A program made the position numbers and the translations under genes. Below, in pieces: positions 3,282 to 63,109 of a stretch of DNA of 64,000 bases; the stretch's first letter is position 1, and each line of letters starts with the position of its first letter. Below the pieces are notes generated by a model, which was given only the letters and a program-made list of their open reading frames with translations, was not told the origin of the DNA and ran no database searches. The stretch is from contig BTUR01000001.1 of the NCBI GenBank assembly GCA_045863475.1, positions 59,846-123,845 of the forward strand. Reading direction: 5' to 3'. The DNA is from Candidatus Campbellbacteria bacterium. Its GTDB lineage: Bacteria > Patescibacteriota > Minisyncoccia > Phycocordibacterales > EsbW-18.

Positions 3282-3536
3282 TTATTTGAGTGCGCCGACT
3301 TTCTTGAGTGTCTCGTATGCACCTCGCTTGCGAATGGTCTTGAGGCCGCGATTTGAAACGGAGACATGGACGGACTTGCCGAGTTCTGGAATGTAGAGCT
3401 TGCGCTTCTGGATGTTTGCCTTGCGGCGGTTCTTTCCGCGTTTTACGCCAGGGTTAAATTGCGTCGCACGCGTTCGGTTGCTGTAGCGACCCGCTGTTTG
3501 AGTTGATTTCCCTGTAACAACGCATTTCTTTGTCAT
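3282..3536 (-). CDS. rpmB: 50S ribosomal protein L28
   Basis: MTKKCVVTGK...HVSVSNRGLKTIRKRG matches L28 family; start moved to MTKK ATG inside track ORF. Confidence 0.8.
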   Translation of the reverse strand: MTKKCVVTGKSTQTAGRYSNRTRATQFNPGVKRGKNRRKANIQKRKLYIPELGKSVHVSVSNRGLKTIRKRGAYETLKKVGALK

Positions 3537-3547
3537 ATAGCGTAGGT

Positions 3548-4225
3548 ATGCCGATACCAAACCGGCTCGCGCATGATATCATGAGGCGACATACTCGTAA
3601 AGTTCTTATGCCCGACCTCGTACAAGCCGCAATTACCATCGCCGTCGTCATTTTTTCCATCGTGTTGCACGAGGTCGCCCACGGCTATGCCGCCAATTAC
3701 CTTGGTGATCCGACGGCGCGGCTGTCGGGGAGGCTCACGCTTAACCCGCTGTCGCACCTGGATTTGTTCGGTTCCGTGCTCGTACCCGTGGTCACCTGGC
3801 TCTCCGGTGGTTTTATCTTCGGGTGGGCGAAACCGGTCCCGTACAATCCCTACAACCTGAAAGCAGCGAGGTTCTCGGAGGCATTCGTTGCCGCTGCAGG
3901 CCCAGCGACAAATCTACTGCTCGCTTTGGTCTTTGGACTCGCCATTCGTTTGTTCGGGGACATATTGCCGGACGGTGTTCTCTTTGTTGCGTTTATTGTT
4001 ACCGTTGCAAACATTGCACTCTTCATCTTCAACCTCATTCCCGTACCACCGTTAGACGGAAGTAAGATTCTTGCATCGGTGTTGCCTCTTCATGTTGCTC
4101 AGAAAATGCTCTCGCTTGAAAAATACGGATTTTTACTTGTTTTTTTGGTTATTCTCGTCGCGTGGCGTGTCATTTCTCCCGTTATTAGTGCGACTTTTTC
4201 ACTCATCACCGGTTTGTCGTTTTAA
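3548..4225 (+). CDS. Site-2 protease / peptidase M50 family membrane metalloprotease (start uncertain: 3530 TTG, 3548 ATG or 3581 ATG)
   Basis: HEVAHGYAA HExxH motif in TM helix, multiple TM segments, LDG motif near C-terminus; divergent from rpmB with only ~10-45 nt between starts. Confidence 0.6.
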   Translation: MPIPNRLAHDIMRRHTRKVLMPDLVQAAITIAVVIFSIVLHEVAHGYAANYLGDPTARLSGRLTLNPLSHLDLFGSVLVPVVTWLSGGFIFGWAKPVPYNPYNLKAARFSEAFVAAAGPATNLLLALVFGLAIRLFGDILPDGVLFVAFIVTVANIALFIFNLIPVPPLDGSKILASVLPLHVAQKMLSLEKYGFLLVFLVILVAWRVISPVISATFSLITGLSF

Positions 4226-4317
4226 CTTGTCCACATAAGGCTTTTTTCCGAAAAAAAGCCTTATTTTTCGTGGTATTATTTGGGGTGGCAACTGAAGCCG
4301 CCGATTTTTCATTGTTC

Positions 4318-7300
4318 ATGACAGAGCGAACACCTACAAAAGCGCTTCTCACCTCGATTTTCCTCCTCGGTTCGTTACTCGGACCTCTCTTTTCTGAGGC
4401 CGAGACGACTGTCGAAGACCCGTTTGCGACAGGGTCCACAACCCCCACACTCTTTGACCGATACGCAACATTTTCCGAAGGTGCGCAGGGCGTTATTTTT
4501 GGCGCATTTGAAAAAACACTCGCGGACGTTCTTGTCGGTTTTCGGTTATACGACGAATTTTCCGCCGGCGCGGAGCGGACGGTTCTCGATGGGTTTACCG
4601 CTTTTGCTGATGGTGCGCTGTCAGCAACATACACATACGAAAACGCAGCAAATATTTTGCATACAGCAACACTCGCGTCAGTGTCCGACGCCGTCGATTC
4701 TGTCGGTGGCAGTGTTGCGTTCGGCAGACGCAGCTATGTAACAGCTGTTGATACCGTGTTTGCATTTGCCGAACGCGCAGTCGTAGACACAACCGACGCG
4801 ACTGTTGAAAATGCGCAACGCATGACGCGTGTCGCGCGCTCACTTGTTTCGTTGGACACATTTGTTGTGCGAAGCACAACGGAAGAAGAAAAAGAAAAAC
4901 TAACTCCAAAACAAGAACCGACCGTCGTGATAAAAAATAATACACTCACTGCGTCAGGGGCTCTCGCGTGGAACACGCTTGGTGGCGTACCTGATGTTGC
5001 AATCGATGCTGCAAAAAATTCTCTCGCAGCAAGCGCAGAAGCAACAACGGGACTGTTTGAGCGCACGCGCCTCGCACTCCGACGCTGGCTTGGTATCGGG
5101 GATGACACAATGGTTGCTGTTCCGGGCACGAATACAACGACAGCCACAACGACGGTCATTGAGCGCATCGTTGAGCGCCCGACGACGGTCACGCAGGTGT
5201 TGCGAAGCAGTGGTGTTTCGTATGCAGACCTCATCAATGCAATTGCAGGATTACGAAACGAACTCCAGCCGCAGATAGACCTTGCGATGGAGCGTCCGCG
5301 CACGGTGTCGCATTCAGGTGATGACGATGATGATGGTGGTGATGGCGGAAGCAGCGGAGATGTAACTGAGGACGACTTGTCCGACAACTCCATTGAGGAC
5401 CTTTCCGATGTCGCTGCGATGACTGAAACATCCGGCGACCTGCTCTACTGGAACGGGGCAACATGGACGAACATCGCAACGTCGTCTTTGGGAATTTCCG
5501 GTGGCTCATCACAATGGACGACCTCCGGTTCAGATATCTACTACACGACAGGCAACGTCGGTGTCGGCACAACGTCGCCTGACGAGCGCCTGACGGTGGG
5601 CGGCAATATTCACGCAACGGGCTCCGTTGATATTGACTCAGGTTCCGAATATCAGATCGGCGGTACGGGGATTCTTACGCGCACGAGCTCGGGCGCCGTA
5701 CTGCTTGGTGACTACAACACGTCGGTCACGCGTGGTACAAACGCACTTGAACTCCAGTCAGCGCCCGGTGACACAACAAACTTCGCGCAAGGAAACAGCT
5801 CAATTGTCATCGGTATGTGGAACCGTGCGTCATCAACAAACGCAATTGCAATCGGTAACAGTAATGAAGCATATTCCGCCGATGACATTCTTGTCGGATA
5901 CGGGAACATGACGCGAGAGACCGCTGCAGCTGGAACACAATCGGACTCGACCATCTTTGGTCGCGCCAACGAAATCTGGAACGTAAATAACTCACTTGCC
6001 CTGGGTGACGATAACTCTCTGACCGGCGGATTTGCGGGGCTTGAGCGTCAGGTAGTTGTGGGCGCATCAAACTCTGTGGAAGGGGCGGGGTACACAAGCG
6101 TATTCGGCTACGACAACACACTCAATGCAGCATCGTCATACTTGTACGCGGTTGCGCTCGGTTCAACCAACATCCTCGGTACTACTCCGGCGTACTCGGT
6201 TGCTGTTGGTTCGAACAACGCACTCGACGGTGCGCGCACGGTTGCCGTCGGTTCCAATGTGTACGCCGGCGGTCCCGAGGCAATCGCCATCGGTGTCGAG
6301 TCGTCAGGTGGAAACATGTTTGCGCTCGGTTATCGCGCGATTTCAATCGGTGTGAATACGCAGGCGAACGCCGACGGCGCGATTGCAATCGGCAACGGCA
6401 TCGTCAACGCGGTTGCCTCGTCCACGCAGATCGGTCCGTCAGACACAGCGAAGCTCACTATCCTTGGTGCCACGGGTTCGGAAGGATTCGTCGGTATTGG
6501 CACGACGACGCCCGCGACAAATCTCGTTGTTGACGGCGACGTTTCAATCACTGGCGGGCTCTACGATTCCGGCACCTCGCTTGGTTCAAACGGCATGGTG
6601 CTTCAGTCAACAGGAACGGGTATCGACTGGGTGTCGACGTCATCTCTTAACATCACCCAAGACCTCTCCGCATACCTGACACTTGCCGACTGGTATGCGA
6701 CAACAACGGACGGACTTGCTGAAGGACTCACAAATCTCTATAACCAAACACACACAGGCGAGGTGACTGGGGCAACAGGTCTCACAATTGCTGATGATGT
6801 TGTCGATGAAGCGAATCTAAAAATAAACGCGGCCGTTGACGGGTATGTTATCTCTGCGTCGTCAACCGCATCTGGCGGGCTTGCGTGGGTCGCGACATCC
6901 AGTTTGGGATTTGGTAGTGGTTCCGGGGTTGTTGGCTCTGGCACAACAGGACAGGTTGCATACTACGCCGCGGACGGCACAGCGGTAACGGGAACGTCGT
7001 CTGTGTTCATTGCACCGAGCGGCAATGTGGGCATCGGTTCAACGACACCGTTGAGTGTGCTAACCGTATCAGGTCCTGCGGCAACAATCTCGATAGACAA
7101 CTCAAGTATCGGAGGTCGGATATACCAGTTGCGCAATGGGGTGTCACCCGTTGGTCGTTTCGAAATATTTGATGTCAGTGCAAATGAGACACGGCTTGCT
7201 ATAGACTCTGATGGAAAGACGGCTATTGGCACATCAACACCGATAGAAGACGCAAGGCTATTTATCTACGGTGGCGCGAATGTCGATATTCGCACAGCGG

Positions 7301-19977: not shown

Positions 19978-20893
19978 GGCCGTACTGAATATGATTACTT
20001 CAATTAACTGCATACCGCGGAGCATATAGATGCGAGCCCTTGTGGTGCGCCTCGAAACCCTCCGCTCAAAAAGCGGTTTTTTTGTTCTCATAGACAGTCG
20101 ATGACCTTTGACAACTGCATAAGCAATAAAGAATCAAATGCTTATTTCGCGCAAGCGAAGTAAGCGCAGGTATCTCGTGCGGCTCATCTAGCGCCGCGCG
20201 GGAATCAAACAACGTGTACCGCGCAGCGGTGTGTTGGTGCACGGAATCGCAGACGCATGTAGGTGCGTATGCGATAAAGACGGTTTTTAGATTTCCTAAC
20301 GGGAGATTTAAAGGGCGTATGGTGGATGCCTTGGTTCTATGTGGCGATGAAGGACGTGGTGTAACTGCGATAAGCTTCGGGGAGGTGTTAAGCAACCTTT
20401 GATCCGGAGATTTCCGAATGGGGAAACCCTGTCGAGTAACCCTCGATAACCGACGCAGCGATGCGCGGAGCATACCCTGGGAAGTGAAACATCTCAGTAC
20501 CAGGAGGAAAAGAAAACAAATGTCATTCCCTTAGTAGCGGCGAGCGAAACGGGAGCAGCCCAAACCACACTGTACTTGTATAGTGTGGCGTTGTAGGGCG
20601 GTAACGCCTGTTTTTAACAAGGAGAAAGTTACAAAATACATCTTTAGTCGAATGCGCTGGAAAGCGCAATCCCAGAAGGTAACAGTCCTGTAGACGAAAA
20701 AGATGTATCTTTCTAGTTACCGTTCCTGAGTACCTCAAGACACGAATAGCTTGGGGGAATCCGCCGGAACTAACCGGCAAGGCTACATACACATAGAGAC
20801 CGATAGTGAACTAGTACCGCGAGGGAAAGGTGAAAAGAACCCCGGAGAGGGGAGTGAAATAGATCTGAAACCATATGCCTACAAGGAGTCAGA

Positions 20894-21228
20894 GCCGAGC
20901 TCTACTTTTTGTTTTTAATTTTCTTTGAACATGTTGAAGGTACGCTCGTGCATATGCACGTTGTGTATCTGATACAAAACACGGTGAGCCACGAACTGTA
21001 CGTTGGTGTAACACGCGACCTTAAAAAGAGGTTGGTGACACATAACAGCGGTGCGGTTACGGCAACGCGACGCAGCGGCGAGTGGGTCTTGATTTACGCG
21101 GAGGCGTATCGAGATGAGCACGACGCGCGCGAGCGAGAGCATCACCTCAAACAGCGCGGCGCGGCAAAACGCGGCGTGTATGAAAGAGTTCGAAGAAGTT
21201 TCCTTGAAAACAAAAAGTAGAGCTTCGG
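20894..21228 (+). other. Intervening sequence (IVS)-like insertion in the 23S helix-25 region, closed by a ~17-bp stem (gccgagctctactttttg ... caaaaagtagagcttcgg)
   Basis: rRNA similarity is interrupted after CAAGGAGTCAGAGC and resumes at GCGTGCCTATTGAAGAATGAGCCAACGAGTT; the insertion termini are an almost perfect inverted repeat. Confidence 0.65.
20954..21220 (+). CDS. GIY-YIG nuclease-superfamily protein (UPF0213-like, ~88 aa) encoded inside the 23S insertion
   Basis: VYLIQN...ELYVGVTRDLKKRLVTHNSG...LIYAEAYRDEHDAREREHHLK GIY-YIG motifs; ORF exactly fills the loop, stop codon TAG lies in the 3' stem arm. Confidence 0.7.
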   Translation: MHVVYLIQNTVSHELYVGVTRDLKKRLVTHNSGAVTATRRSGEWVLIYAEAYRDEHDAREREHHLKQRGAAKRGVYERVRRSFLENKK

Positions 21229-22640
21229 TCATGGCGTGCCTATTGAAGAATGAGCCAACGAGTTTAAGTATGCGGCGAAGCTAAATCCTTTGTCGGATGA
21301 AGCTGCAGGGAAACCGAGTGTTAATAGCGCGTACTTTGAAAGCAAGGAGGTCGGACGTGTAGGTGAGCAATCACACACGCGTTCGGCATTCTCGCTTTCA
21401 AAAGGTCGTATACTTAAGACCCGAAGCTAGGTGAGCTACCCATGAGCAGGGTGAACTTTGTCGAAAGATGAAGGGAGGCCCGAACCGGTTGATGGTGCAA
21501 AATCTTCGGATGACTTGTGGGTTGGAGTGAAAAGCTTATCGAACCTAGTAATAGCTGGTTCTCTCCGAAACAGCTTTTGGGCTGGCGTACAGCGTACCTC
21601 TTGGGGGTAGAGCACTGGATGGTCCGGATAGGGAGAAATCTCGCTGGACCAATCAAACTCCGAATACCAAGAGTAAGTACTGTGCAGTTAGACCGTGGGG
21701 GCTAAGCTCCACTGGTCAAAAGGGAAACAGCCCTTGATCTCAAGTTAAGGTCCCTAAATCGATGCTAAGTGCAAGTCGAGGAGGTGAAATTTCTCAGACA
21801 CTGAGGAAGTTGGCTTAGAAGCAGCCATCTTTTAAAGAAAGCGTAACAGCTCACTCACTCAGAGATTTCGCGCCACAGACTATCGGGGCTAAGTATCGTA
21901 CCGAAACTGAGGATGACACGTGCGTTCGCGCATGTGTCGTGGTAGGAGAGCATTTCCATCTGCGATGAAGCCGAAGGCGTGAGCCACGGTGGAGCGATGG
22001 GAAGAGAGAATGTTGGTACAAGTAACCGCAATGCGGGTGAAATACCCGCACGCCGAAAAACCGAGGTTTCCTTCGCGATGGTAATCAGCGAAGGGTTAGT
22101 CGGGCCTAAGCGAATGGCGAAAGCCGGACGTGATGGACACACGGTTAATATTCCGTGACTCGGCTGTAATTCGATGGAGAGACGGAGTGAAGTATATATC
22201 GCACATTATTGGATTTGTGTCGGGCATGCGAGGAGGTCTGTTTGGCAAATCCGGCAGACACTACTCCAGAGGCATGTTCGGGAACCCAATCTACGGAACG
22301 GGGAACGATATAAAGCGCGCTTCCAAGAAAATCTTCTAAGGTTAATTACAGACGACCCGTACCGCAAACCGACTCCGGTGGTTAGCTCGAGTAGAGTAAG
22401 GCGAACGAGTGAGAGGTCCTCAAGGAACTCGGCAAAAAAGCGACCGTAAGTTAGCAATAAGGTCTGCCTGCGCAGCAGTGCGTGGGCCGCAGCTAAAGTC
22501 TTCCTGGCGACTGTTTATCAAAAACACAGCTCCCTGCGAACTCGTAAGAGGATGTATAGGGGGTGACACCTGACCAATGCCAGAAGGTCAAGTATGGAGG
22601 GTCTTCTCCGCAAGGAGAAGGCTGAGCTATATAAGCCCTG

Positions 22641-22702
<62 letters not shown>

Positions 22703-22765
22703 ACGCCGATGAGAACAAATGCTATGGTACGTAAATAGTCTGTGCGCATGGCGAAGTGCCACGTG

Positions 22766-23425
22766 CTATGCAGTTTCTTCAGGTGCGGCTGTTTCTCCTT
22801 CTCCCTCCGCAGTTTCATCCTTACCTTTCTTTTCCACTTCGATTGCATCCATGTCAATCGGTGCAACCGGCTCTTCGATTTCTTCTTGCGGCTGAGAAAT
22901 TGCGGCAACCACTTCGTCTCCTTCGTTGAGAATCGTAACACCTGCAGGCACGGGTATGTCTTTAATGACAACTTGACTGTCAAACGTTTCAAGCGATGAC
23001 ACATCAACAGTGAGCTCGTGTGGCAAGTCTTTTGGCATCGCCTCAACTTCCACCTCGTGCATCACCTTCACCAGTGTACCACCCAAGTTCTTAACTGCGG
23101 GCGCCTCACCTGTGAACAACAGCGGGACATCGATGCGAAGCTTCTTTCCTTTCTCGATAACGTAAAAATCAACGTGCTCAAATACATCCGTGACCGGATG
23201 TTTTGTAACTTCATGAACGAGCGCGTCTTTCGGCTCACCAACACCTTCCAGTGTGATGATGGATGATTCACCGGCCGAGCGGAACACTTTTTCAAATGTC
23301 TTGCGGTCAACTGCAATCGGCGTGGATTCCTCTTTCGGACCGTAAAAAACCGCCGGAATCTTGCCGCCTTTGCGCAAGCTCTCCGCGTTTCCTGCCTCTC
23401 GTTTTTCTACTGTAAGCGTCAACAT
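22766..23425 (-). CDS. rplY: 50S ribosomal protein L25 / general stress protein Ctc
   Basis: L25/Ctc family (LTVEKREAG..SLRKGGKIPAVFYG, two beta-barrel domains, acidic tail); start set to MLTLTVEKR. Confidence 0.85.
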   Translation of the reverse strand: MLTLTVEKREAGNAESLRKGGKIPAVFYGPKEESTPIAVDRKTFEKVFRSAGESSIITLEGVGEPKDALVHEVTKHPVTDVFEHVDFYVIEKGKKLRIDVPLLFTGEAPAVKNLGGTLVKVMHEVEVEAMPKDLPHELTVDVSSLETFDSQVVIKDIPVPAGVTILNEGDEVVAAISQPQEEIEEPVAPIDMDAIEVEKKGKDETAEGEGETAAPEETA

Positions 23426-27473: not shown

Positions 27474-28329
27474 TGTGTGATGCCTCTATTTTTCCCTTGA
27501 GGGTCCGCAATTCTTTCAAAAATTTCTTTTCTTCTTCTTTTGTCGGCGGTTTGCCGTGCCAGTGGTAGTCATATTCAATCTCTTTGACTCCCTTGCCGGC
27601 AATGGTGTGCGCGATGATAACCGTCGGGCGCTCAGAAATCGCGCGCGCCTCATCCACCGCGTCCACAAACGCCATGATGTTGTGCCCGTCCACTTCAATG
27701 ACGTGCCAGTTGAACGCGCGCCATTTGTCGGCGAGCGGCTCCAGGGGCATCACGTGCTCGGTTGTACCGCTGATTTGAATGTTGTTGCGATCAATGACCG
27801 CGGTAAGATTGCTGAGTTTGTTCGCACCGGCAAACATCACGCCCTCCCAGGTGTTGCCCGCCTGCAATTCCCCGTCTGACATCAGACAGTACGTGCGCCA
27901 TTTCTTGCCGTCGAGGCGCGCGGCGTACGCGTAGCCCGCGGCCTGCGAGAGTCCGGAGCCCAGCGGCCCTGATGTCGTCTCAACTCCGGGCAGGCGTTCG
28001 CGCTCGGGATGTCCCTGCAGTCTCGTGCCAAATTTTCGAAGTGTTTTAAGCTCTGAAAGCGGAAAGTATCCGGCGTGTGCCATCGCGGCGTAGCGAACCG
28101 GCGTAATGTGGCCATTGGAGAGAAAGAGCCGGTCGCGTTCTTCCCACGCAGGATTCTTCGGGTCGTGTTTGAGAATATGAAAATAAAACGCCGTAAAGAT
28201 GTCCGCCATGTCCAACGGTCCCGCGGTGTGCCCCGACCCCGCGTCTTCCAGCATATCAATCAGTGATATGCGAATATCATTGGCTTTCAATTCTAAATCT
28301 TTAATCTTGTCGTCAGAAAGATGTGTCAT
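27466..28329 (-). CDS. Transketolase, N-terminal (TPP-binding) subunit of split enzyme
   Basis: GSGHTAGPLDMADI, GHPE...GVETTSGPLGSGLSQAAG, MSDGELQAGNTWE motifs; 8-nt overlap with C-terminal subunit gene. Confidence 0.9.
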   Translation of the reverse strand: MTHLSDDKIKDLELKANDIRISLIDMLEDAGSGHTAGPLDMADIFTAFYFHILKHDPKNPAWEERDRLFLSNGHITPVRYAAMAHAGYFPLSELKTLRKFGTRLQGHPERERLPGVETTSGPLGSGLSQAAGYAYAARLDGKKWRTYCLMSDGELQAGNTWEGVMFAGANKLSNLTAVIDRNNIQISGTTEHVMPLEPLADKWRAFNWHVIEVDGHNIMAFVDAVDEARAISERPTVIIAHTIAGKGVKEIEYDYHWHGKPPTKEEEKKFLKELRTLKGKIEASHND

Positions 28330-28417
28330 ACGCTTTTGAAAGTATACCCCGTGAGATAGTTTTTTACATCTCACGGGGTATAACAAATCTCCCTACAAAT
28401 TCTTGACAAACCATGCA

Positions 28418-28960
28418 CTAATCAAGAATTAAATAACCACACCAAACATTGTTCTTATCGACACCAATCCCATCATCTCCATAAGCACATTCAAAATATT
28501 GAGATGACTCATCCAAATGGAATGTCTGGGCGTCTGCGCCCTCCAACAATACGATCCCGTGACCAGCCATCACGTTATCATAAAACCAGACGTATTTACC
28601 TGATTTAAAAAATTCTGGGTCACCTCCCTCGGAAAACTTTTTTCCTGATGTAAGACCAACCGCTTTTGAAAGTTCTATATCATAATCTTCCGGTTTAACC
28701 CAAGAACCATACACCTGACCATTTGATGTAATGACACAAAAATTTTTGTTGTATCCACAATTAACTTTTGATGTGTCTTTAGACTGGGAAAGCACACTGT
28801 TTAATGTACCCGCCCATTCTTCACTTGCTTGTTGTGTTGTATTTATTAATTTTTGTTTTTTTAAATAAACCAATGCCCCAACGAGGGTTAGAAAAACTAC
28901 AAGAAAAATAGCGACGTAGGTGGCCGTCTTAAATGTAATTTTCAAATCAAACGACTTCAT
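28418..28960 (-). CDS. Hypothetical membrane-anchored protein (AT-rich gene, ~38% GC)
   Basis: N-terminal TM helix; intact ORF; compositionally distinct from flanking genes. Confidence 0.45.
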   Translation of the reverse strand: MKSFDLKITFKTATYVAIFLVVFLTLVGALVYLKKQKLINTTQQASEEWAGTLNSVLSQSKDTSKVNCGYNKNFCVITSNGQVYGSWVKPEDYDIELSKAVGLTSGKKFSEGGDPEFFKSGKYVWFYDNVMAGHGIVLLEGADAQTFHLDESSQYFECAYGDDGIGVDKNNVWCGYLILD

Positions 28961-28972
28961 GTCTAAAAATTG

Positions 28973-29650
28973 TTATAAATTTTTTAAACGTTCAATGGTT
29001 GCCTTGATGTTCTCACTGCCGAATATTGCAGAACCTGATACGAGCTTCGTTGCGCCTGCGTCCACAAGCTGTGGTGCGGTCTCCTCGGAAACACCGATAT
29101 CAACGGCAATGGGAAGTTCCGGATAACGTGCGCGTATCTCCTCAATTTTCTCGTACACACGCTCATCCAACGAGACGCCGTGGTATCCGATATCATCACT
29201 GCCCATGCACTGCACAAAATCCGGCACGCCGTGCGCTTCAAGTATGGAGAACAACACCTCGTTGGGGGTACTCGGTGTAATCGCCCACCCCACTTCAATA
29301 TCTGCATCTTTCAGTTTCTTAAAAATATCCCCGTGAGCTTTGGTACTCTCAATGTGCACCACCGCTGCAGCAACGCCAACTCGTATCCACGTGTCAATTT
29401 CTTTTTCTGGCTCGTCGATGAGCAAATCCACTTCGTAGTTTATTTCATCCCACAGCGGCAACCCTTCGTCCTCAGATGCAAGCCGCTGCATGTGTCCGTC
29501 GTCGCCGTTGTACGGCCATGTTTTTGACGGCGCGTAGGTACCGTCCGCAACATCCAACTGCACACGCGACACAGAACTGCGAACCAGTCCCGCCTTCGCG
29601 GTTATGTCTTCGTAGGTATCAGGAATGATTGCCGGTACGACTTCAATCAT
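28973..29650 (-). CDS. rpe: Ribulose-phosphate 3-epimerase (divergent)
   Basis: QLDVADG..., VDIGVSEETAPQLVDAGATKLVSGSAIF C-terminal signature; start set at MIEVVP (8-nt overlap with rpiB end). Confidence 0.65.
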   Translation of the reverse strand: MIEVVPAIIPDTYEDITAKAGLVRSSVSRVQLDVADGTYAPSKTWPYNGDDGHMQRLASEDEGLPLWDEINYEVDLLIDEPEKEIDTWIRVGVAAAVVHIESTKAHGDIFKKLKDADIEVGWAITPSTPNEVLFSILEAHGVPDFVQCMGSDDIGYHGVSLDERVYEKIEEIRARYPELPIAVDIGVSEETAPQLVDAGATKLVSGSAIFGSENIKATIERLKNL

Positions 29651-44545: not shown

Positions 44546-45793
44546 ATGGAACAGATAAAACACCGTCTTATCGGCGCATTGCGTTGGAGCGAAAAATACA
44601 CGAAGACCGACATGGTGTATCTCGTTGGTAATAGTTTCTGGCTCACGGTAGGACAGGGCATCTCCTCTCTAGCATCCCTCGCGCTAATAATTGCGTTTGC
44701 TAACCTTCTCCCAAAAGAAACTTACGGGACTTACAAGTTTGTTCTCTCGGTGGCAAGTGTTCTTTCCGTGCTGACCTTGCCAAGAATGAACACCGCAATC
44801 ACACAGGCCGTTGCACGCGGGTATGAAGGTTCTCTTTTTGTTGGCACAAAAAAACGCGTTATTTGGGGTACGTTCGGTGCTATCGTCTCCTTTTTTGTTT
44901 CCCTTTATTATTTTCTGCAAGGCAACACTGAAATTGCAATTGCACTACTTCTTGCCGCAGCATTTCTTCCCATATTTGATACATTCGGCACCTGGAATGC
45001 ATATCTCCAAGGAAAACAGGATTTTAAATCCGGGGTGATTTATACCACAGTTGTGCACATTGCTTCTGTTACCATACTGTTTCTAACTATTCTTGCCACT
45101 GACAGTCTTCTTGCGATTGTTTTTATCTACTTTCTTTCATATACGCTACTACGCGCTTTCTTTTTCTATCTCACAGTCAAAAAATATACGCCAAATACCC
45201 TGATTGATCCGAGTACGTATTCCTACGGGAAACACCTGACGGCGATGACAGTTTTGAGCACTATCGTTGGACAATTGGACAAAATACTTCTCTTTCATTT
45301 TTTGGGAGCAGCCCAAGTTGCAACATACTCAATCGCCCTGGTTGTACCAGAACAAGTTCAGGGTATGCTTAGAAATGTCGGGGTGGTTGCATTTCCAAAG
45401 TTTGCTTCACAAAGTTTTGAGGATATAAAAAGAAATCTCTCCTTCCGGCTTGCACAATATGGTCTCTTCATAACTATTCTGACCATCCTTTATGTTTTTT
45501 TGGCACCGTTTTTATTTTCTCTTCTTTTTCCCGGATACAGTGACGGCATCCTGCTCTCGCAAATAGTTTCGCTGTCCCTTATTACCGCCTTGGTTGGGCC
45601 TGCCGTAGCAGCCCTAGAAGCTCAACAGAAAAAACAGCAACTCTACATGCTTCGAACCCTCTTTCCTGTTATAGGCATCGTTCTTTTTCTTGCCCTTGTA
45701 CCCACTTTTGGGATTTTAGGAGCAACACTTGCGTTTACTACCCTAAACTTCTCAAAACTCATCCTCTCACTCTTCTTTCTCTATAGGACATAA
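44546..45793 (+). CDS. Polysaccharide biosynthesis flippase (Wzx/MOP-family)
   Basis: ~12 TM helices, Polysacc_synt-like pattern; start trimmed to MEQIKHRL. Confidence 0.7.
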   Translation: MEQIKHRLIGALRWSEKYTKTDMVYLVGNSFWLTVGQGISSLASLALIIAFANLLPKETYGTYKFVLSVASVLSVLTLPRMNTAITQAVARGYEGSLFVGTKKRVIWGTFGAIVSFFVSLYYFLQGNTEIAIALLLAAAFLPIFDTFGTWNAYLQGKQDFKSGVIYTTVVHIASVTILFLTILATDSLLAIVFIYFLSYTLLRAFFFYLTVKKYTPNTLIDPSTYSYGKHLTAMTVLSTIVGQLDKILLFHFLGAAQVATYSIALVVPEQVQGMLRNVGVVAFPKFASQSFEDIKRNLSFRLAQYGLFITILTILYVFLAPFLFSLLFPGYSDGILLSQIVSLSLITALVGPAVAALEAQQKKQQLYMLRTLFPVIGIVLFLALVPTFGILGATLAFTTLNFSKLILSLFFLYRT

Positions 45794-45932
45794 CTTCCAC
45801 CTAAAATAAGTTGTCTGTACAAGTAAAGCTTTAAAAAACGAAACCAGGGTAGAAACCGCCTGTTCTAAAAGAGGAAAGTGGGTTACATTAGTATGGTTCC
45901 CATTAAAACGACGCCAATAGCAACTACACAAC

Positions 45933-46601
45933 ATGCAGAACAACACTCATTTCAGCAAAAAAAATAAAGACTATGAAGCTTACTGGAAGGACAGAATCGG
46001 AAGAAACAGAACTTACATAACACCGATTCATCGAAAAATTTTGGAGTTGGTCTCGAAAATAGCGAAGCCGGGTAGTGCCGTCCTTGATTTGGGGGTTGGT
46101 CCCGGCCACGTGTTTAGAGAATTACAAAAAGACTACAAAGTATACGGGGCGGAAATCTCTACCACAGTATTTGATCTTTATGACTTTCCCACCGAAAACA
46201 TCAAACATGTTGACTTGGAAAAAGAGATGCCCGCGTTTGATGGAAACCCAAACTTCTCCGTGATTATCGCAAGCCACATCATCCACCATTTTGATGATCC
46301 GCTGGCTTTCCTGCGTCGGGTTAAAGAAAAAATGGATAGCAACACTCGCCTCTTGGTGGCCACACCCAATACTGTATTTATAAACTACAGAATAAAATAC
46401 CTCCTTCTTGCTCAGTTTCCTGATCTTAGTCGTGCCCACGTCAACTACCTGACTCCACGTGAATATAGAAAATTATTCGAAGAGGCAGGTCTAGAAATTG
46501 AAACATTTGCAGGAATTAAGCATTACCCCCTCCTAGTTTTAAGCACAATCTTTCCCTCCCTGTTCTCACAAACACTATTCTTTGTTGTTAAAAAGGTCTA
46601 A
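45933..46601 (+). CDS. Class I SAM-dependent methyltransferase (AT-rich gene)
   Basis: VLDLGVGPGHV motif I, acidic motif II YGAEIS. Confidence 0.7.
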   Translation: MQNNTHFSKKNKDYEAYWKDRIGRNRTYITPIHRKILELVSKIAKPGSAVLDLGVGPGHVFRELQKDYKVYGAEISTTVFDLYDFPTENIKHVDLEKEMPAFDGNPNFSVIIASHIIHHFDDPLAFLRRVKEKMDSNTRLLVATPNTVFINYRIKYLLLAQFPDLSRAHVNYLTPREYRKLFEEAGLEIETFAGIKHYPLLVLSTIFPSLFSQTLFFVVKKV

Positions 46602-47201
46602 AACTACCTGTAGGGTTTTTTCTTCTCGCACAATCGATGCGGGAGTTTGAAAGTTTAAGTAATCCCAGTCAATGAAATAAATCTCTCCTTTCTCATTTAG
46701 GAGGATATTTTTAGCTTTAATATCCCCGTGTACGTATCCAAGATCGTGTAGCCTTGAAGTAAAATCTTGAACTTGTTTTTTAATTTTCATTCTTTCAGCC
46801 AGAGTTGGATTTTTTGCCAAAAAATCTTTCAGGCTTTCAGACTCTGTAATAACCTCAGTTAGTATTTTATTTTCAAAAAGAACGACTTTTGGAATATTGT
46901 TTTTTAAAACAACGTCCTCGGTTAGTTTCTTTAGGATTAGAAAACATTCCTTGTCCGGCAACCAATCAAGCCCCATTTTCTTGTGGTAAATCCTGGTAAC
47001 GGGGTTTTTAATTTTTATAACGAACCACTCAGGTTTCTCTTTTTGTTTTACCCTGTAAATAAAATGTGTTGGCTTTTCGTTTCCACAAAAAAAAGAGGTG
47101 ACGTCTAATCGGTTTTTAAACTTCAACTTATAAAAAAATAACACTGGAAAATAGAACAGAAACAGGATAATCTTCGATGTGTAAAGTAAAACACTGTTCA
47201 T
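46575..47201 (-). CDS. Kdo/WaaP-like lipopolysaccharide kinase-family (protein-kinase-like fold) protein, AT-rich gene
   Basis: LHDLGYVHGDIKAKNILL catalytic loop, YFIDWD metal-binding motif, N-terminal membrane anchor. Confidence 0.6.
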   Translation of the reverse strand: MNSVLLYTSKIILFLFYFPVLFFYKLKFKNRLDVTSFFCGNEKPTHFIYRVKQKEKPEWFVIKIKNPVTRIYHKKMGLDWLPDKECFLILKKLTEDVVLKNNIPKVVLFENKILTEVITESESLKDFLAKNPTLAERMKIKKQVQDFTSRLHDLGYVHGDIKAKNILLNEKGEIYFIDWDYLNFQTPASIVREEKTLQVVLDLFNNKE

Positions 47202-47228
47202 TTTCGTTTGATTTCAATAATCGACCGT

Positions 47229-47855
47229 TTATTTTTTTACAACAAAAAAATAACCAAGGGGCATGAAACGTGGAGAAAAGTGGCTATCTTTTTTTATCCA
47301 ACTAATCACCCTATCGAGGAAGCGCACAAGAAGCATCATACCTTCCTTGACCACAGCAAACCTATACAGACCGAATAGCGCGTGGTACAGCACGCTAAAA
47401 GCCCCCGTTCCGAGTGGTGAGACATGTATCTCGGTAAAACCGGCGTCTGCAAAAATACGTTCAAGCGCAGACTGAGTGTAACGAAAATAGTCGTCTGGAG
47501 ACCCGTGGACGTTAAAAAGAAACGGCGTTGAACCAACGAGTACGCCACCTTGTTTGAGTATGCGGAAGCTTTCATTAACCGCGTTTTGGTACCCAAACAA
47601 GTGCTCCAAAACATTGAGCATAATCACGCCGTCATAACTCTCGTCCTTCAAAGGAAAAGGTTTTTGTGCATCAAACGTCATGTCTATATCCACACCCTCC
47701 TTAATATTTGCGACCTGGATCGTATGTGTACCAGAAATAAGTTCGTGGTATCCAGATTTTTTATCTCCACCAACATCGAGTATTTTTCCGTTGATGGTTA
47801 GGTGCGACATGCACTCATATTGAAGCCTGCGAAGCAGTGAAAATGTTTTGGTCAT
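47229..47855 (-). CDS. Class I SAM-dependent methyltransferase (Methyltransf_11-like)
   Basis: ILDVGGDKKSG motif I; ATGA start/stop overlap with upstream methyltransferase. Confidence 0.7.
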   Translation of the reverse strand: MTKTFSLLRRLQYECMSHLTINGKILDVGGDKKSGYHELISGTHTIQVANIKEGVDIDMTFDAQKPFPLKDESYDGVIMLNVLEHLFGYQNAVNESFRILKQGGVLVGSTPFLFNVHGSPDDYFRYTQSALERIFADAGFTEIHVSPLGTGAFSVLYHALFGLYRFAVVKEGMMLLVRFLDRVISWIKKDSHFSPRFMPLGYFFVVKK

Positions 47856-48493
47856 AGCGATGCAATAAAAATAAGGTCGAAAGCAAAGAGGCCAGGTAGC
47901 CATCGCGCAAGTTTTCGGTATTTTCCAAGTCCGATAATTTGGACAGAGGAAAAATGCAGACGCAACATCGCACTGAGTTCTGAGACCGAAAAATGATTTA
48001 TATGTGTCGGATCAGCGAGAGGTGTATTTCTCTTATTCCCCAAAAAAAGCCGGATTCTGTTCTTGATGCTAAACGCGTTCGGTACAGAGCCGATGAACAT
48101 GCCGTTTTCCTTAAGGGCAGCGCGTGCCCGTTGTATAACCTTATTCGGATAATACAAATGTTCAAGTATCTCTCCCGCGACAACAACATCAAAACGCCTG
48201 CCGCCTAGTTCTCCCCAGTCACCGTTAAGATCGAAGCTTTCGGTCTTGATACCCAAATCCCGCCGAGCCTTTTCGAGAAGCCGCTCGTCAATATCAACTC
48301 CAAGCACTTCGTTATGCTTCGAAAAATGTTGCGTAAGCGTACCATCCCTGCATCCGATATCCAGAACCTGCTTCCCCGACCCGATAGTTTGCGATAATAC
48401 TTCGCCACGCTCTTTTTCAAAAACAGAAAAACCGTCCCGTTGGCGTGAGCGGTGGTGTTCTTCGTACATTGTTTTTAGTGTGTTTGTGGTCAT
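47852..48493 (-). CDS. Class I SAM-dependent methyltransferase
   Basis: VLDIGCRDG motif I, FDVVVAGEILEHL. Confidence 0.75.
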   Translation of the reverse strand: MTTNTLKTMYEEHHRSRQRDGFSVFEKERGEVLSQTIGSGKQVLDIGCRDGTLTQHFSKHNEVLGVDIDERLLEKARRDLGIKTESFDLNGDWGELGGRRFDVVVAGEILEHLYYPNKVIQRARAALKENGMFIGSVPNAFSIKNRIRLFLGNKRNTPLADPTHINHFSVSELSAMLRLHFSSVQIIGLGKYRKLARWLPGLFAFDLIFIASL

Positions 48494-58081: not shown

Positions 58082-59869
58082 TTAGTTTTTTTCGTCGCGT
58101 TTAAAGAGATCTTTCAGGACGTGTTCTGGAACTTCTTTTGGTTGTTGCTTCTCCTGCTTCTGTTGCGGCGGTTCAGTTTTTTCCGTCTCTCGGCGCGGTT
58201 CTTCTTTCGGTTTTTGCGGTGCCGCAGGCGGAGGTGTCGGTGTTTTTTCTGCAGCATTCGCTTGTACGTCACCGATAACCGCGGAAAGTGCCGCGCGTAA
58301 GTCAGAGAGGTGCGCTTGTGACGGCCCCTTCTCTTTTTTCACGTGTTTGTGTTTTTGTTTGTGCCGATCTGCATCGTGACGGAGATTGGAAAGCGACACC
58401 GCTGCACGCAGTTGTGTCTCTCGATCAACAGCGGGTGCCGGAGCAGGTGCCGGGCCCCTGTGAGCGTGCTCGGGTCGCTCTGTGCGCGGCTGCTGCGGCC
58501 GACGCTCTTCTCGGCGAGGGCCGTGATTCCCGTGTCCCTCACCTTCTGGTCGAGGTTGCGCGCTCTTGCCGAAGTTTTTTTGGTGCCATTTCAAAATGTC
58601 GTTCTCCACAACGGCGCGCGGATGCGCGAATTGCGCACGTGAACGCGCGATAGAAACGTCACGGTATGAAATGTGCGGCACGGTAATCGGCGGCAGCGTA
58701 CGCGCGGAGAACGGCGAGGACGCCATGCCGTCAATCATGAGCTTGAGATAAATCTGGTAGCGGTCCAGGTTCACAAGGTCTTCGGCGGTAAATGCCGGCG
58801 CGTACTCCTTCTCAAGATATTCGGCGTCAGTCGCACCGACACGAAATGTCATCATGGTGCCGACGTTGCCGAACACGGCGGCGCGTACTTCCTCGGACAT
58901 TTGTTCAATGTACTGGTGCGCGATGGTGAGGTTGAGCTTGTACTTGCGAGCTTCCGAGAGAATGTCGGCAAACGACTCGTTGGCAAATGACTGAAATTCG
59001 TCCACGTACAGATAGAAGTTCGGCAGCTTTTCAAGTTCCGGCTCGCGCAAATCAGCGCGTGACATCGCGGCGAGGTAAATCTTCGTGATAATCATGGAAC
59101 CAAGGAGGTTCGCACTGTCCTCACCCACCTGCCCCTTTGAGAGGTTGATGATGAGAATCTTTTTCTTGTCCATGATTTCGCGGATGTTGAACGTGGACTT
59201 CGGCTGACCGATGATGTTGCGGATAACCGGATTGGCGGTGAATTGTCCGACCTTGTTTTGAATTGCCGGTGTTGCCTCTTGTGCGAAGCGGTCGGTGTAG
59301 TTGGCAAACTCATCTTCCCAGAACGATTTCACACCCGGGTCGGTAACGTGCGAAACAACTTCCTTGCGAAAATCTTTGTCCGCGAGCATGCGGTTAATGC
59401 CAAGCAGTGTTGAGCCCGGATACTCCAGGAGGGCGAGAATGGTGTTGTTGAGAATGTACTCCATGCGCGCCGACCATGCATCCACCCAGATTTTTTTGAA
59501 CGCCGACATCAAACCCGCCGCAACGAGGTGGCGCTTGTCCGGTCCGATATCTTCCATGACGTTGAATGACACCGGGTTGGCGAGGTCAAACGGTGCAAAA
59601 TACAGCACGTCGTCAACGCGCTCTTTGGGAATGTAGTCGAGGAGTAAGTCGGCGCTCCGTCCGTGCGGATCAATAAACGCGAACCCTTCGCCGTTTTGGA
59701 TATCCTGAACGGCCATGTTCTCCAGGAGTACAGACTTACCGACACCGGTCTTACCGATGACATACACGTGGCGCGTACGGTCTTTCGCCTTAATGCCGAA
59801 TTTTACCCGTTTGCTGCGATAATCGGTCTCGCCGATATACGTGATGCGGTTTGGGTCGTAGGAGGACAT
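58082..59869 (-). CDS. P-loop ATPase of the VirD4/TraD/HerA-FtsK (DUF87-like) clade with long disordered Pro/Glu/Lys-rich C-terminal tail
   Basis: Walker A HVYVIGKTGVGKS, Walker B NFYLYVDEFQ, sensor TIAHQ; low-complexity tail ...PRREERRPQQPRTERPEH...KQEKQQPKE; start set at MSSYDP. Confidence 0.55.
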   Translation of the reverse strand: MSSYDPNRITYIGETDYRSKRVKFGIKAKDRTRHVYVIGKTGVGKSVLLENMAVQDIQNGEGFAFIDPHGRSADLLLDYIPKERVDDVLYFAPFDLANPVSFNVMEDIGPDKRHLVAAGLMSAFKKIWVDAWSARMEYILNNTILALLEYPGSTLLGINRMLADKDFRKEVVSHVTDPGVKSFWEDEFANYTDRFAQEATPAIQNKVGQFTANPVIRNIIGQPKSTFNIREIMDKKKILIINLSKGQVGEDSANLLGSMIITKIYLAAMSRADLREPELEKLPNFYLYVDEFQSFANESFADILSEARKYKLNLTIAHQYIEQMSEEVRAAVFGNVGTMMTFRVGATDAEYLEKEYAPAFTAEDLVNLDRYQIYLKLMIDGMASSPFSARTLPPITVPHISYRDVSIARSRAQFAHPRAVVENDILKWHQKNFGKSAQPRPEGEGHGNHGPRREERRPQQPRTERPEHAHRGPAPAPAPAVDRETQLRAAVSLSNLRHDADRHKQKHKHVKKEKGPSQAHLSDLRAALSAVIGDVQANAAEKTPTPPPAAPQKPKEEPRRETEKTEPPQQKQEKQQPKEVPEHVLKDLFKRDEKN

Positions 59870-59945
59870 GGATTTCAAAGACTGTGGGTCCCGCGCGGCG
59901 GCGGACCAGCTAGAGTTCAGTATAAAGCACAAATGAAAAAGAAAA

Positions 59946-59977
59946 AGCGCCGAGCTGTCTGAGCAGACAGCTCGGCG
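59946..59977 (-). terminator. Strong rho-independent terminator for the minus-strand small-gene operon
   Basis: gcgccgagctgtc tgagca gacagctcggcgc (13-bp stem); minus strand followed by tttttctttttcattt. Confidence 0.75.
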
Positions 59978-60006
59978 CGAACCCCGCGTCCTTCCTCAGT
60001 AGTTGA

Positions 60007-60456
60007 TCACAGCGATAGGCCTCCTTGGTTGACCCTGTCTGCGTTGACGTTCCTGACGGCGCCACGTGCAATCTCTTCGACGGTCGCGAGATCGTGCGGG
60101 TCTCCCCACACCCACCGCACTTCTTTGACATCACGCCATGCACCAAGCAGGTGCGGGTACGCGTCCGGTTCGACGGTAAACAATCTCCAGTCGTCGTACA
60201 CAACGAAGCGCCACGGATGGCGGCGCCAGTACGTGACCTGCACCCCGTCGTGGTTCTTGAGGCGCTGTTGAACAACGTGCTCCGGCATCAACGTATCGCA
60301 CGGAGTCACAAACAGCATCCAGAGCCGAATCTCCTCTTTGGACGAAAGACCGCGAATCGGCGCTCGCTTGAGAAGCCCTCGCCAGTACTCATACCGTTCC
60401 ACGGGATGATTCCCGATGACGACGTCCTCCAAGGGACGTGGTCTGTTGTAGAGCAT
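60007..60456 (-). CDS. Hypothetical protein (149 aa), Trp/Arg-rich
   Basis: RBS ggggggtgg 5 nt upstream of ATG (MLYNRPRP); ~58% GC; terminator downstream. Confidence 0.5.
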   Translation of the reverse strand: MLYNRPRPLEDVVIGNHPVERYEYWRGLLKRAPIRGLSSKEEIRLWMLFVTPCDTLMPEHVVQQRLKNHDGVQVTYWRRHPWRFVVYDDWRLFTVEPDAYPHLLGAWRDVKEVRWVWGDPHDLATVEEIARGAVRNVNADRVNQGGLSL

Positions 60457-60584
60457 TGATCCACCCCCCGACTTGTCGGTAATGCTGTCTTGAAAAATGT
60501 GCTTCTGCACACTACCCTACTCTGCAAAAACACGAAAATCAAGAACGCCGTCCGGGGTTAGCCCGAGACGGCGTTGAAGAACAG

Positions 60585-60824
60585 TCATGATTCGGTTTGG
60601 CATCCATCGCGCCTGATACGCTCGCCGCGCACACCGGCGAAGAGCCAGACGGCTTTCAGAAGAAATGCTTCCTTCCAGGTCCCCGACGACACCGCCGTCG
60701 CACCGTATTGCACGAGTGTGTCAGCAAGTGCAATGACCCAGATGAACGTAACCAGGGACAGCGGAATGAAAAAGAGTCCCGTGCCGGAGAGCGCGTACCC
60801 GAATGGCACAAGAAACTTCTTCAT
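60585..60824 (-). CDS. Small two-TM membrane protein (79 aa)
   Basis: RBS ggaaggtgag; ATGA overlap with upstream ORF stop; hydrophobic helices. Confidence 0.45.
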   Translation of the reverse strand: MKKFLVPFGYALSGTGLFFIPLSLVTFIWVIALADTLVQYGATAVSSGTWKEAFLLKAVWLFAGVRGERIRRDGCQTES

Positions 60825-61063
60825 GCGCTCACCTTCCTGCACCAGATGGAGATGGCCTTGGAACCTTTCTTCCACGTAACCCTCCATCCGCGTTCCTTGT
60901 ACATCTTGAAGAGACACTGCAACACTTCCGCCGGCAGACCCGTCGGCGAATCCCACCGGCCAACGGTCAGCAAACCCGTGTTGATGGAGCCCTCGAGATA
61001 CGAGAGCATCGCCGGCAGATTGTTTTGGCAATCCAGATGATCCTGCACCGATACGACGCGCAT
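60821..61063 (-). CDS. Hypothetical small protein (80 aa)
   Basis: Strong RBS gggagggag immediately upstream of ATG; 57 nt after hydrolase gene stop. Confidence 0.45.
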   Translation of the reverse strand: MRVVSVQDHLDCQNNLPAMLSYLEGSINTGLLTVGRWDSPTGLPAEVLQCLFKMYKERGWRVTWKKGSKAISIWCRKVSA

Positions 61064-61119
61064 GACTCCCTCCCTTTCCGTTGAGGTACGTTTCTGAAAA
61101 ATCTGCCCCCTACAGTGCC

Positions 61120-62481
61120 CTACCGCCCTGTCGGTGTCAAAGAGCTGCCGGTGGCAGTCGCTTCATGGAGTGCAGCGCGTGTGTACGTGTTGCCTGCATC
61201 CCACAGCGCCCAGGAGGTCAGTCCTGCGTCGTATGTTGCCTGCATCTGTGCACGAACCATCTCAGGTGTATACGTCGCGCCGAGGTCAAAGTCCTGCAGC
61301 CAAGGGCGCATTTGTAGTACGTTGATGTTGCCATGTCCTTTGTTTGCCTGTGTACGCAAATAGGTGGCTTCGGTTGTTGTTGCGGTTGAATTTTTTGCCT
61401 CCGCCATAGCACGCACGCGCCGCACCGCCTCGTCCATAGAATACTTCACCACTTCGTACGGGGAGCTTGCCGGTTTTGCAATCCCGATGAATCCTGCGTT
61501 GTAGTGCGACGGGTACACCATCGGCATCACGTAATCAAAGTACGGGAGCGCGCGTTCAAGCAGCTGTCCGATGCCGAGATCGTCGCGGTTCGTTGTTGTG
61601 TACCCAAAGAGATCAACGGAGAGCACCGGGCGCGGTTCATCGTCTGAGAAAATATTGCGCACCGAACGCAAACCCGACGTCGGTGCCTCGCCCGTATCAA
61701 GTGCTTCGTAGAGATATGCGAAAAAAGTTTCGAGCTCCACATCTTTCGGCTTGCCCTCAGAGAGCGTGAACGCGATATCTTTCATGTTGCCGTCGGACGG
61801 ATAGCGCACGTAGTCGTAGTTAAGTTCATCAAACCCGAGTGCGTATGACTCACGCGACAGTTCAATGATGTAGTCCCAGAATGGACGCGCACCGACATCG
61901 ATAAATGACAGTCCTTTGTGGTCCGTCCAGACAACCGACGTGTCACTCTCTTTCTTCACCGCGAGTTCCGGGTGCAGTTTGCTGTAAAACGGATCTTGGA
62001 ACACCGTAATGCGTCCGACGACGTAAATATTTTTGCCGTGGAGCATTTTGATGAACTCTTTCATGTCACGCGCGCCACACGCGTCAGATACGGACGGTGC
62101 AAGCACCGGATTATCGGTCGTAAAGGCGATTTTTCCGGAAAAATCCTTGATGTCAATGATAACGGCGTTGAGTTCGGTCTCATCAATGAGCTTTACGAGC
62201 TTCTCGCGAAACGACGGTGTGCCGACGACACACTGCGTCATGTAAATTGCCTTGAGCGGGTCGGGTGTCGGGAGGTGCACCACGTCAGAGGCGGGCTTTT
62301 TTTCCTCTTCGTCAAACGTCGCGTTCTGTGCCTTCACTTCCTGCTGGTTGTATCGGTATGAAAAAATCTGCGGTCCGATGAAAAAACCAACAAGGAAGAT
62401 GACGACTGCCACCAACGATGCCCAGAGGAGCACCGGAGAGAACCATCGTATATGTTTACGCGATATGGGTTGTTTCATCAT
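61120..62481 (-). CDS. Putative TIM-barrel glycoside hydrolase-like protein (DUF4015/GHL-type), N-terminal signal anchor
   Basis: TM anchor ...LLWASLVAVVIFLVGFFIG; NAVIIDIKDFSGKIAF, GRITVFQDPFY motifs typical of DUF4015 family; start set to MMKQP. Confidence 0.6.
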   Translation of the reverse strand: MMKQPISRKHIRWFSPVLLWASLVAVVIFLVGFFIGPQIFSYRYNQQEVKAQNATFDEEEKKPASDVVHLPTPDPLKAIYMTQCVVGTPSFREKLVKLIDETELNAVIIDIKDFSGKIAFTTDNPVLAPSVSDACGARDMKEFIKMLHGKNIYVVGRITVFQDPFYSKLHPELAVKKESDTSVVWTDHKGLSFIDVGARPFWDYIIELSRESYALGFDELNYDYVRYPSDGNMKDIAFTLSEGKPKDVELETFFAYLYEALDTGEAPTSGLRSVRNIFSDDEPRPVLSVDLFGYTTTNRDDLGIGQLLERALPYFDYVMPMVYPSHYNAGFIGIAKPASSPYEVVKYSMDEAVRRVRAMAEAKNSTATTTEATYLRTQANKGHGNINVLQMRPWLQDFDLGATYTPEMVRAQMQATYDAGLTSWALWDAGNTYTRAALHEATATGSSLTPTGR

Positions 62482-63109
62482 GTGATACTTCTTGCCGCAG
62501 TGTCCCGCCATACCGCAGATATAATCCCCAAGCGATATAAAACAGTCCGATGCCTGCTGAAATCCATTGCTTCCAGAGAAGCGGAATGCCGATGACCTGC
62601 GTCAACAGGAGCACCACACCAAGCAAAACGAGTGTGCGTGTTTGTTTGCGGTTCATGGGGATAAGTATAGCGTGCAGAACCAAAATATTGTAGTGTGAAT
62701 TACAGACGAACCGCGAAGCATGCGCTTCGCAGAAAGGAGAGCACCATGAGAGCGTGGAGGGGATGATGCGTAGGCACACCCGCAGGAAAACTTCCAACTT
62801 CGGCAAGATGATCGACCGCGGTATCTGGATTCGCCACAGGTACATCCAGAACGGCATCCGCCGGCGCATCATCGATGGACGACGCAGTTACATCGTCCGG
62901 GCTCACCGTGGAAGGAGCACCTCACATCGGTGCAGGAGCACCGTCACCAACATGAAGGCCCGTACCATCTAGGGGGTGATCCGGCGCCTCGGCGCCATAT
63001 CTGCCGCCGACGGGGCGGTGCAGGGTCCCACCGCAACGGGTAGTTGCCGCAGCACCATCCGCAACACTCTCCTGCCACCACGGCCGTCTCGATTCCGAGG
63101 CGGCCGCGT

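Follow-up and report, generated by a model that had tools for sequence, protein, structure and literature searches.

The minus strand of the 64,000-nucleotide (nt) stretch of Candidatus Campbellbacteria DNA analysed here, called the window below, carries three small open reading frames (ORFs), A, B and C, between the gene of a DUF4015 putative glycoside hydrolase and that of a TraD/VirD4/HerA-like ATPase. Coordinates of the ORFs, their neighbours and the associated signals are collected in Table 1. The first-pass annotation of this DNA had described the three ORFs, the ATGA overlap of A and B (found at 60821-60824) and the two flanking genes; all were confirmed, and none of the three proteins gave a domain match at the sequence level, again as had been stated. 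A and B are entered in NCBI as hypothetical proteins AMXMBFR44_1290 and _1280 of a Candidatus Campbellbacteria metagenome-assembled genome, and over the A-B-C region the window sequence is matched at 100% identity by two Logan contigs. Most of what follows concerns C, whose predicted fold is that of toxins, and the junction directly 3′ to it, where most relatives carry a fourth gene, D.

Table 1. Features of the locus in the order of transcription (window coordinates; aa, amino acids; TM, transmembrane; SD, Shine-Dalgarno).
Feature	Position	Strand	Basis or detail
DUF4015 putative glycoside hydrolase, upstream flank, with N-terminal TM anchor	61120-62511	-	Pfam PF13200, E 1.2e-79; conserved synteny
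SD site of A, GGGAGGGAG	~61066-61074	-	purine-rich, upstream of the A start
ORF A, 80 aa, soluble	60821-61063	-	open frame, homologue on L088
ORF B, 79 aa, small membrane protein	60585-60824	-	open frame, homologues on L088, L085 and L008
Hairpin and U-rich tail directly 3′ of B	60526-60575 (hairpin 60544-60575)	-	13 bp (9+4, one bulge), then CUUGAUUUUCGUGUUUUU
SD site of C, GGGGGGTGGA	~60460-60469	-	purine-rich, upstream of the C start
ORF C, 149 aa, rare family, predicted RelE/ParE-colicin D (BECR) fold	60007-60456	-	ATG start shared by homologues
28-nt spacer at the site of gene D in relatives	59979-60006	-	comparison with L004
Intrinsic terminator closing the C unit	59937-59978 (stem 59947-59978)	-	14-bp stem, 10 G-C pairs, 4-nt loop, then TTTTTCTTTT
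TraD/VirD4/HerA-like ATPase (TrwB/T4SS-DNA_transf/DUF87), downstream flank	58082-59869 (or 59932)	-	Pfam; 595-aa gene call

Judging from the protein collections searched, the C family is real but very rare. A word-indexed search of 5.8 billion proteins returned two relatives, at 94% and 48% identity, and an exhaustive HMMER search of 1.84 billion representatives recovered 13 C-family proteins at E<=1e-3. Scans of JGI metagenomes with patterns derived from C, and likewise with patterns derived from B, gave no match. Among 13 related loci (designated by L numbers), C was present in all, B in 4 and A in only 2, or 3 if an end fragment on L085 is counted; the three ORFs do not therefore form the co-conserved module that the first-pass annotation had envisaged. 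Identity within the C family goes down to 22-48%. Compared with L004, a 95%-identical strain, C of the window shows 9 synonymous and 10 non-synonymous differences, and the resulting ratio of non-synonymous to synonymous substitution rates (dN/dS) of 0.32 shows that C is under constraint. L006 carries tandem C-family paralogues (3505-3891 and 4015-4398; hhalign probability 91%) without D, the upstream one having Ala in place of an otherwise invariant Arg, R83.

We then considered the fold. The AlphaFold2 model obtained for C with 3 sequences was unusable (predicted local distance difference test score, pLDDT, of 37.5); the model used here is that built from 15 sequences, with a pLDDT of 78, a predicted template modelling score (pTM) of 0.68 and residues 10-110 mostly above 80. 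The predicted protein has the compact alpha/beta fold of the BECR/RelE-ParE superfamily, in which one or more N-terminal helices rest on an antiparallel beta-sheet of 3-4 strands. Its structural matches are almost exclusively toxins, colicin D/E5 domains among them. In Foldseek comparison with the BFVD viral models, uncharacterised phage proteins lead (E 2e-3 to 6e-3, prob 1.00), and the list also includes one DUF4258 protein (prob 0.89) and one called ‘Colicin D’; the same comparison with the PDB gave nothing significant, CdiA-CT and colicin D being among the first matches. At the sequence level, C of the window had no match in Pfam, NCBIfam or PADLOC that would place it in a curated BECR/RelE-ParE family (ParE_toxin, RelE, YoeB, HigB, BrnT, gp49, DUF4258 and others). 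Within the C family as a whole, Pfam DUF4258 was matched by one of the 15 members (E 0.086) and phrog_8252, a group without assigned function, by three.

The (near-)invariant residues of C are H17 and R21 in the first helix, R65, R83 in the ‘WRFVV’ strand, and T94 and E96 in the ‘TVEPD’ strand; the model places R83 in the middle strand, with T94 and E96 in the last of the core strands. In colicin-like BECR ribonucleases (RNases), the active site is formed by a conserved His and a Lys/Arg on the pre-alpha helix together with conserved residues on the terminal beta-strand (bioRxiv 10.64898/2026.08.28.747851). The same work groups DUF4258 with these enzymes, while it is elsewhere counted within the RelE/ParE superfamily. 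Judged by their placement on helices and strands of the model, the conserved residues of C would fit this published layout.

Comparison with L004 revealed what is missing next to C. The 323 nt that are absent from the window (L004 499-821) encode D, a protein of 99 aa, whose GTG start overlaps the C stop (GTGA) and which is followed by the same terminator and then by the ATPase gene. D, of about 100 aa, is present in 10 of the 13 loci (L003, L004, L005, L008, L085, L087, L088, L089, L090 and L091) and absent from the window, L006 and L086. Where present, it follows C by overlap or within 35 nt, with overlaps also in L003, L088 and L089 and a 2-nt gap in L008. The coupled two-gene layout of toxin-antitoxin systems is thus found for C-D in relatives (L003, L004, L008, L085, L088 and L089) and is lacking in the window, where D is deleted. 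A search of the whole window with a D profile detected neither a copy nor a remnant.

Contrary to the single three-gene operon that had been proposed, A-B and C look like two transcription units because a terminator-like hairpin stands between B and C. This hairpin has a folding energy of -27.5 kcal/mol (z = -4.4) and none of 200 shuffled sequences was as stable; a hairpin/T-run element occupies the equivalent position 3′ of B in L008, L088 and L085. It is probably an intrinsic terminator or attenuator ending an A-B unit, and C would then probably be transcribed separately. The terminator of the C unit (tail T5CT4, folding z = -4.2) is real and strong, as had been noted, with a stem of 14 rather than 13 bp; it recurs in L004 and L008, and in relatives it is placed after gene D.

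Purine-rich SD sites stand before all three ORFs (GGGAGGGAG for A, GGAAGGTGAG for B and GGGGGGTGGA for C), in agreement with the good ribosome-binding sites claimed earlier. These sites stand out because, at their longest start, 34 of the 44 long ORFs of the window lack an SD match of at least 4 nt and only 10 have one, close to the random rate; by this count the genome makes little use of SD sites. By eye, AGGAGG-type motifs were also seen before the B, C and D starts of L008. The guanine-plus-cytosine (GC) content of the three-gene stretch is 57.2% (A 56.8, B 56.7, C 59.1), below the 58-60% first given and only mildly raised: it corresponds to the 98.6th percentile among windows of the same size, which have a mean of 51.6%, a standard deviation of 3.7% and a maximum of 58.5%.

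A and B were examined at both the protein and the DNA level. Protein sequence searches with either returned only the proteins of the window itself, and A had no match in Pfam, PHROG, NCBIfam, PADLOC or the PDB; B, too, was without defence-system or PDB matches. At the DNA level, a homologue of A was found at the same position on the metagenomic contig L088 (48% identity over 75 aa, tblastn E 1e-18), where it has not been called as a gene, and L085 holds the C-terminal end of another; A is consequently no strain-specific orphan. B has homologues at the same position on L088 (48% identity), L085 (42%) and L008 (31%), the last without A. On L088 the genes run DUF4015 - A - B - MFS - C - D, MFS standing for a major facilitator superfamily transporter gene. 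L085 shows the same series from the C-terminal end of A onwards, its A stop and B start overlapping in TGATG. When L088 is compared with the window, substitutions follow the order pos3 > pos1 > pos2 in both frames, with differences by codon position of 34/22/42 for A. Codon scores per codon are +0.08 for A, a borderline value at the 5th percentile of true-gene windows, +0.27 for B, typical of genes of the window, and +0.17 for C. By the conservation of both frames in L088 and L085 and the substitution pattern, A and B are genuine genes and, with their overlap, translationally coupled. In B we find a strong TM segment, with a 19-residue Kyte-Doolittle maximum of 2.35, and a weaker, amphipathic one, so that of the two TM segments announced for it the first stands and the second is less clear.

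Other explanations of the A-B interval were tried and rejected. It is no remnant of the MFS gene that relatives carry there, since tblastn and profile searches gave nothing above noise, nor is A a displaced, diverged copy of D (hhalign probability 0.3%). The plus-strand ORF 60597-61040 (147 aa), named in the first-pass annotation as an alternative, does not represent the conserved frame: its codon score is -0.12, it is interrupted by a stop codon in L088, and its identity is 32% against 48% for A/B.

The place of these genes was examined by a one-genome-per-species scan, which gave 80 Paceibacteria loci with an ATPase at 54-77% identity. In most of them the order is RsmI - DUF4015 - gap - ATPase - LTD/PKD protein, and the DUF4015-ATPase gap varies between 25 nt and 5.6 kb; in the majority of Paceibacteria that have this ATPase it measures only 25-140 nt and holds neither C nor D. 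Elsewhere the gap was seen to hold type IV pilin genes, a 1262-aa restriction-modification fusion, an IS200-like transposase, a GIY-YIG nuclease, a Fic/RhuM protein, an APH-family kinase (phosphotransferase) or Mur ligase genes (genomes L012, L040, L042, L065, L049, L035, L037, L044, L009, L014, L057 and L078). These comparisons show the DUF4015-ATPase junction to be a hotspot of cargo insertion and rearrangement in Paceibacteria. C lies between the DUF4015 and ATPase genes in 13 of 13 loci, DUF4015 being sometimes followed by an MFS_1 transporter gene. Such a single fixed site points to a gene acquired once, long ago, then inherited vertically and eroded, or else to a functional link with its neighbours. 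In L091, the MFS gene before C (4826-5935) is called at 206 aa instead of the ~415 aa seen elsewhere, and a longer open frame still matches the MFS profile; the short call could be due to a frameshift or to decay of the transporter.

Taken together, we give somewhat better than even chances to a model in which C is a divergent BECR-fold RNase-type toxin-like protein, D its neutraliser, recently lost in this strain, and A-B a separate unit of an eroding islet. The gene structure, the conservation, the position, the predicted fold and the loss of D are shown by the data, while the RNase activity and toxicity of C and its neutralisation by D are inferred. The stretch represents this strain's version of a variable islet between the DUF4015 and TraD/HerA-like ATPase genes in a Paceibacteria clade comprising Candidatus Campbellbacteria and relatives. 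Its first unit, A-B, comprises two translationally coupled small proteins, one soluble and one membrane-bound, with a probable terminator of their own, and recurs in at least one relative (two with the L085 fragment). The second unit, C, with its BECR fold and conserved His/Arg/Arg/Thr-x-Glu set, would most likely be an RNA-cleaving enzyme of toxin type, which D, coupled downstream of C in most relatives, would bind and neutralise. The order, toxin first and neutraliser second, would be that of HigBA, BrnTA or CdiA-CT/CdiI. Deletion of D has left C as a solitary toxin-like gene in the window strain. The toxin-immunity set suggested in the first-pass annotation thus comes near the mark for C, with its predicted toxin fold, and misses in that the usual partner is not in the window.

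Several observations weigh against this model. C matches no Pfam toxin model at threshold, and profile searches of PDB sequences were empty. The D family shows no recognisable DNA-binding or antitoxin domain in Pfam, NCBIfam or PADLOC, apart from one weak SM-ATX match (E 0.02). Moreover, where D is absent (the window, L006 and L086), C is nevertheless intact, with all conserved residues, which would be odd if D were an essential antitoxin. Finally, the C family is confined to one chromosomal site and does not show the patchy, mobile distribution of toxin-antitoxin modules.

Set beside known systems, predicted C shares the BECR fold with the type II toxins of the RelE/ParE superfamily (ParE, RelE, YoeB, YafQ, HigB, MqsR and BrnT). 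It differs from them in having no sequence match to any Pfam model of the superfamily and in its length of 149 aa, which includes an additional helix and an extended C-terminus; similarly, D differs from the partners in RelE/ParE modules by its lack of a recognisable antitoxin or DNA-binding domain and its dispensability in three lineages, and the site is fixed instead of patchy and mobile. Unlike the colicin-like BECR RNases (DUF4258/Ntox49, the colicin D/E5 tRNase domains and CdiA-CT), C stands alone instead of forming the C-terminal tip of a delivery protein; a helix is inserted at residues 59-68, the similarity of C stays under every curated threshold, and its role as an RNase is predicted. 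PYCH_01220 of Pyrococcus yayanosii (PDB 6l7q) is 10% identical to C. The PDB calls it a hypothetical protein and a literature search found no paper on it; the entry adds no functional information on C.

The main rival, which we regard as unlikely, takes C-D, and perhaps A-B and the MFS gene, for lineage-specific accessory or regulatory proteins of a conserved envelope cluster and not for a conflict module. This cluster would consist of a small TM protein, DUF4015, the TraD/HerA-like ATPase and the LTD/PKD surface protein, and C-D could act for example as an adaptor or substrate of the ATPase. Each C-family member with known context indeed sits immediately upstream of the ATPase gene in spite of the low identity within the family, C persists without D in three lineages, and signs of mobility are lacking. 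However, in the window, L004 and L008 a strong terminator sets C or D apart from the ATPase gene, and most Paceibacteria do with the same ATPase and without C or D; the occurrence of unrelated cargo in the same gap of other genomes and the nearly exclusive resemblance of the C fold to toxins also speak against it. We attach only a small chance to a related proposal, namely that A-B and C-D, with the MFS gene, make up a module specific to the lineage and inherited vertically, which would work with the ATPase and with surface proteins of Paceibacteria. Under this proposal C could for example be an RNase effector, with an immunity protein and membrane components, serving episymbiotic host-cell interaction, unlike an ordinary selfish toxin-antitoxin pair.

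Less likely than the envelope cluster, and in our opinion improbable, is a degraded bacteriocin-like or phage-derived cassette, with B as a holin-like or lysis-type protein, C as the RNase effector, D as a lost immunity protein and the MFS gene of relatives as exporter. The lone family match of B, to Phage_holin_2_2 (E 0.042), points in this direction, but at 14 bits it is far under the cut-off of 25.4; no consistent holin match was obtained with B homologues, no endolysin or phage gene lies near B, and no viral relatives of it were found. Similarly, the best Foldseek matches of C are phage proteins, its structural matches include colicin D/E5 domains and some family members match phrog_8252, while C itself carries no receptor-binding, translocation or signal sequence and has no phage genes nearby. 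The SD sites and the raised GC, in a genome otherwise poor in SD sites, hint at a foreign origin; against this, neither DNA nor protein matches were found in INPHARED phages or IMG/VR, a phage or plasmid origin was rejected on these searches, and the phage origin put forward in the first-pass annotation has no sequence-level support in these collections. Equally doubtful is the idea that in this strain C alone matters, A and perhaps also B being ORFs in decay or without function: the borderline codon score of A, the lack of A and B in most C-bearing loci and the signs of erosion (no D and no MFS gene in the window, the shortened MFS call in L091) would agree with it, but A is 48% identical to an intact homologue with a coding pattern of substitutions, the A-B overlap is retained in both the window and L085, both genes have a strong SD site, and B combines a normal codon score with three homologues.

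The neighbouring genes were characterised as well. The ATPase is a Paceibacteria core gene without a TM segment and with a low-complexity C-terminal tail rich in Pro, Lys, Glu and Gln; its closest PADLOC model is mad8/HerA. Homologues and the 595-aa gene call make the ATG at 59869 (MSSYDPNR...) its probable start. Between the window (58082-59869) and L004 (940-1929) we counted 36 synonymous and no non-synonymous differences, a sign of extreme purifying selection. At 59919-59924 (minus strand) there is a conserved ‘TTTATACTGAA’-type box, ~20 nt past the terminator T-run and ~50 nt before the ATPase start; such a box also precedes the ATPase gene in L004, L008 and L006, and in L088 and L085 a similar TATACT box stands before the MFS gene. 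The box is a candidate for the -10 promoter element of these Paceibacteria. On the other side of the islet, an ORF of ~66 aa with two TM segments (MNRKQTRTLVLLGVV...GWGLYLRYG; 62456-62656, minus strand) overlaps the start of the DUF4015 gene. L086, L087 and L089 have it at the same place and with a conserved sequence, including the motifs IGIPLxWK and GWGLYxRY, and the product resembles a small membrane protein that partners DUF4015. A literature search found no paper on DUF4015 in Parcubacteria.

Elsewhere in the window, a 23S rRNA gene stands alone at 20299-22833 (plus strand), matching 2535 nt of a 2925-position model; 16S, 5S and tRNA genes were not detected in the 64 kb. Such an isolated, short 23S gene fits the unlinked, shortened rRNA genes of Candidate Phyla Radiation (CPR) bacteria. 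GC content falls to 0.39-0.41 at ~45000-48000 and 28000-29000, against a window mean of 0.52, and these regions could be foreign or of special composition.

As far as the present searches reach, A, B and D appear to be uncharacterised families confined to a small clade, and C a newcomer to a known superfamily. A and B are real and conserved small proteins, for the most part overlooked by gene callers and absent from protein databases. C would bring to the RelE/ParE-colicin (BECR) fold a very rare, sequence-orphan family of the CPR, unusual in its fixed chromosomal site, its unfamiliar partner and the survival of a toxin-like gene beyond that partner. Should C prove to be an active RNase, it would serve as a small case in which to study the tolerance or repurposing of toxin-like genes by the minimal genomes of episymbionts.
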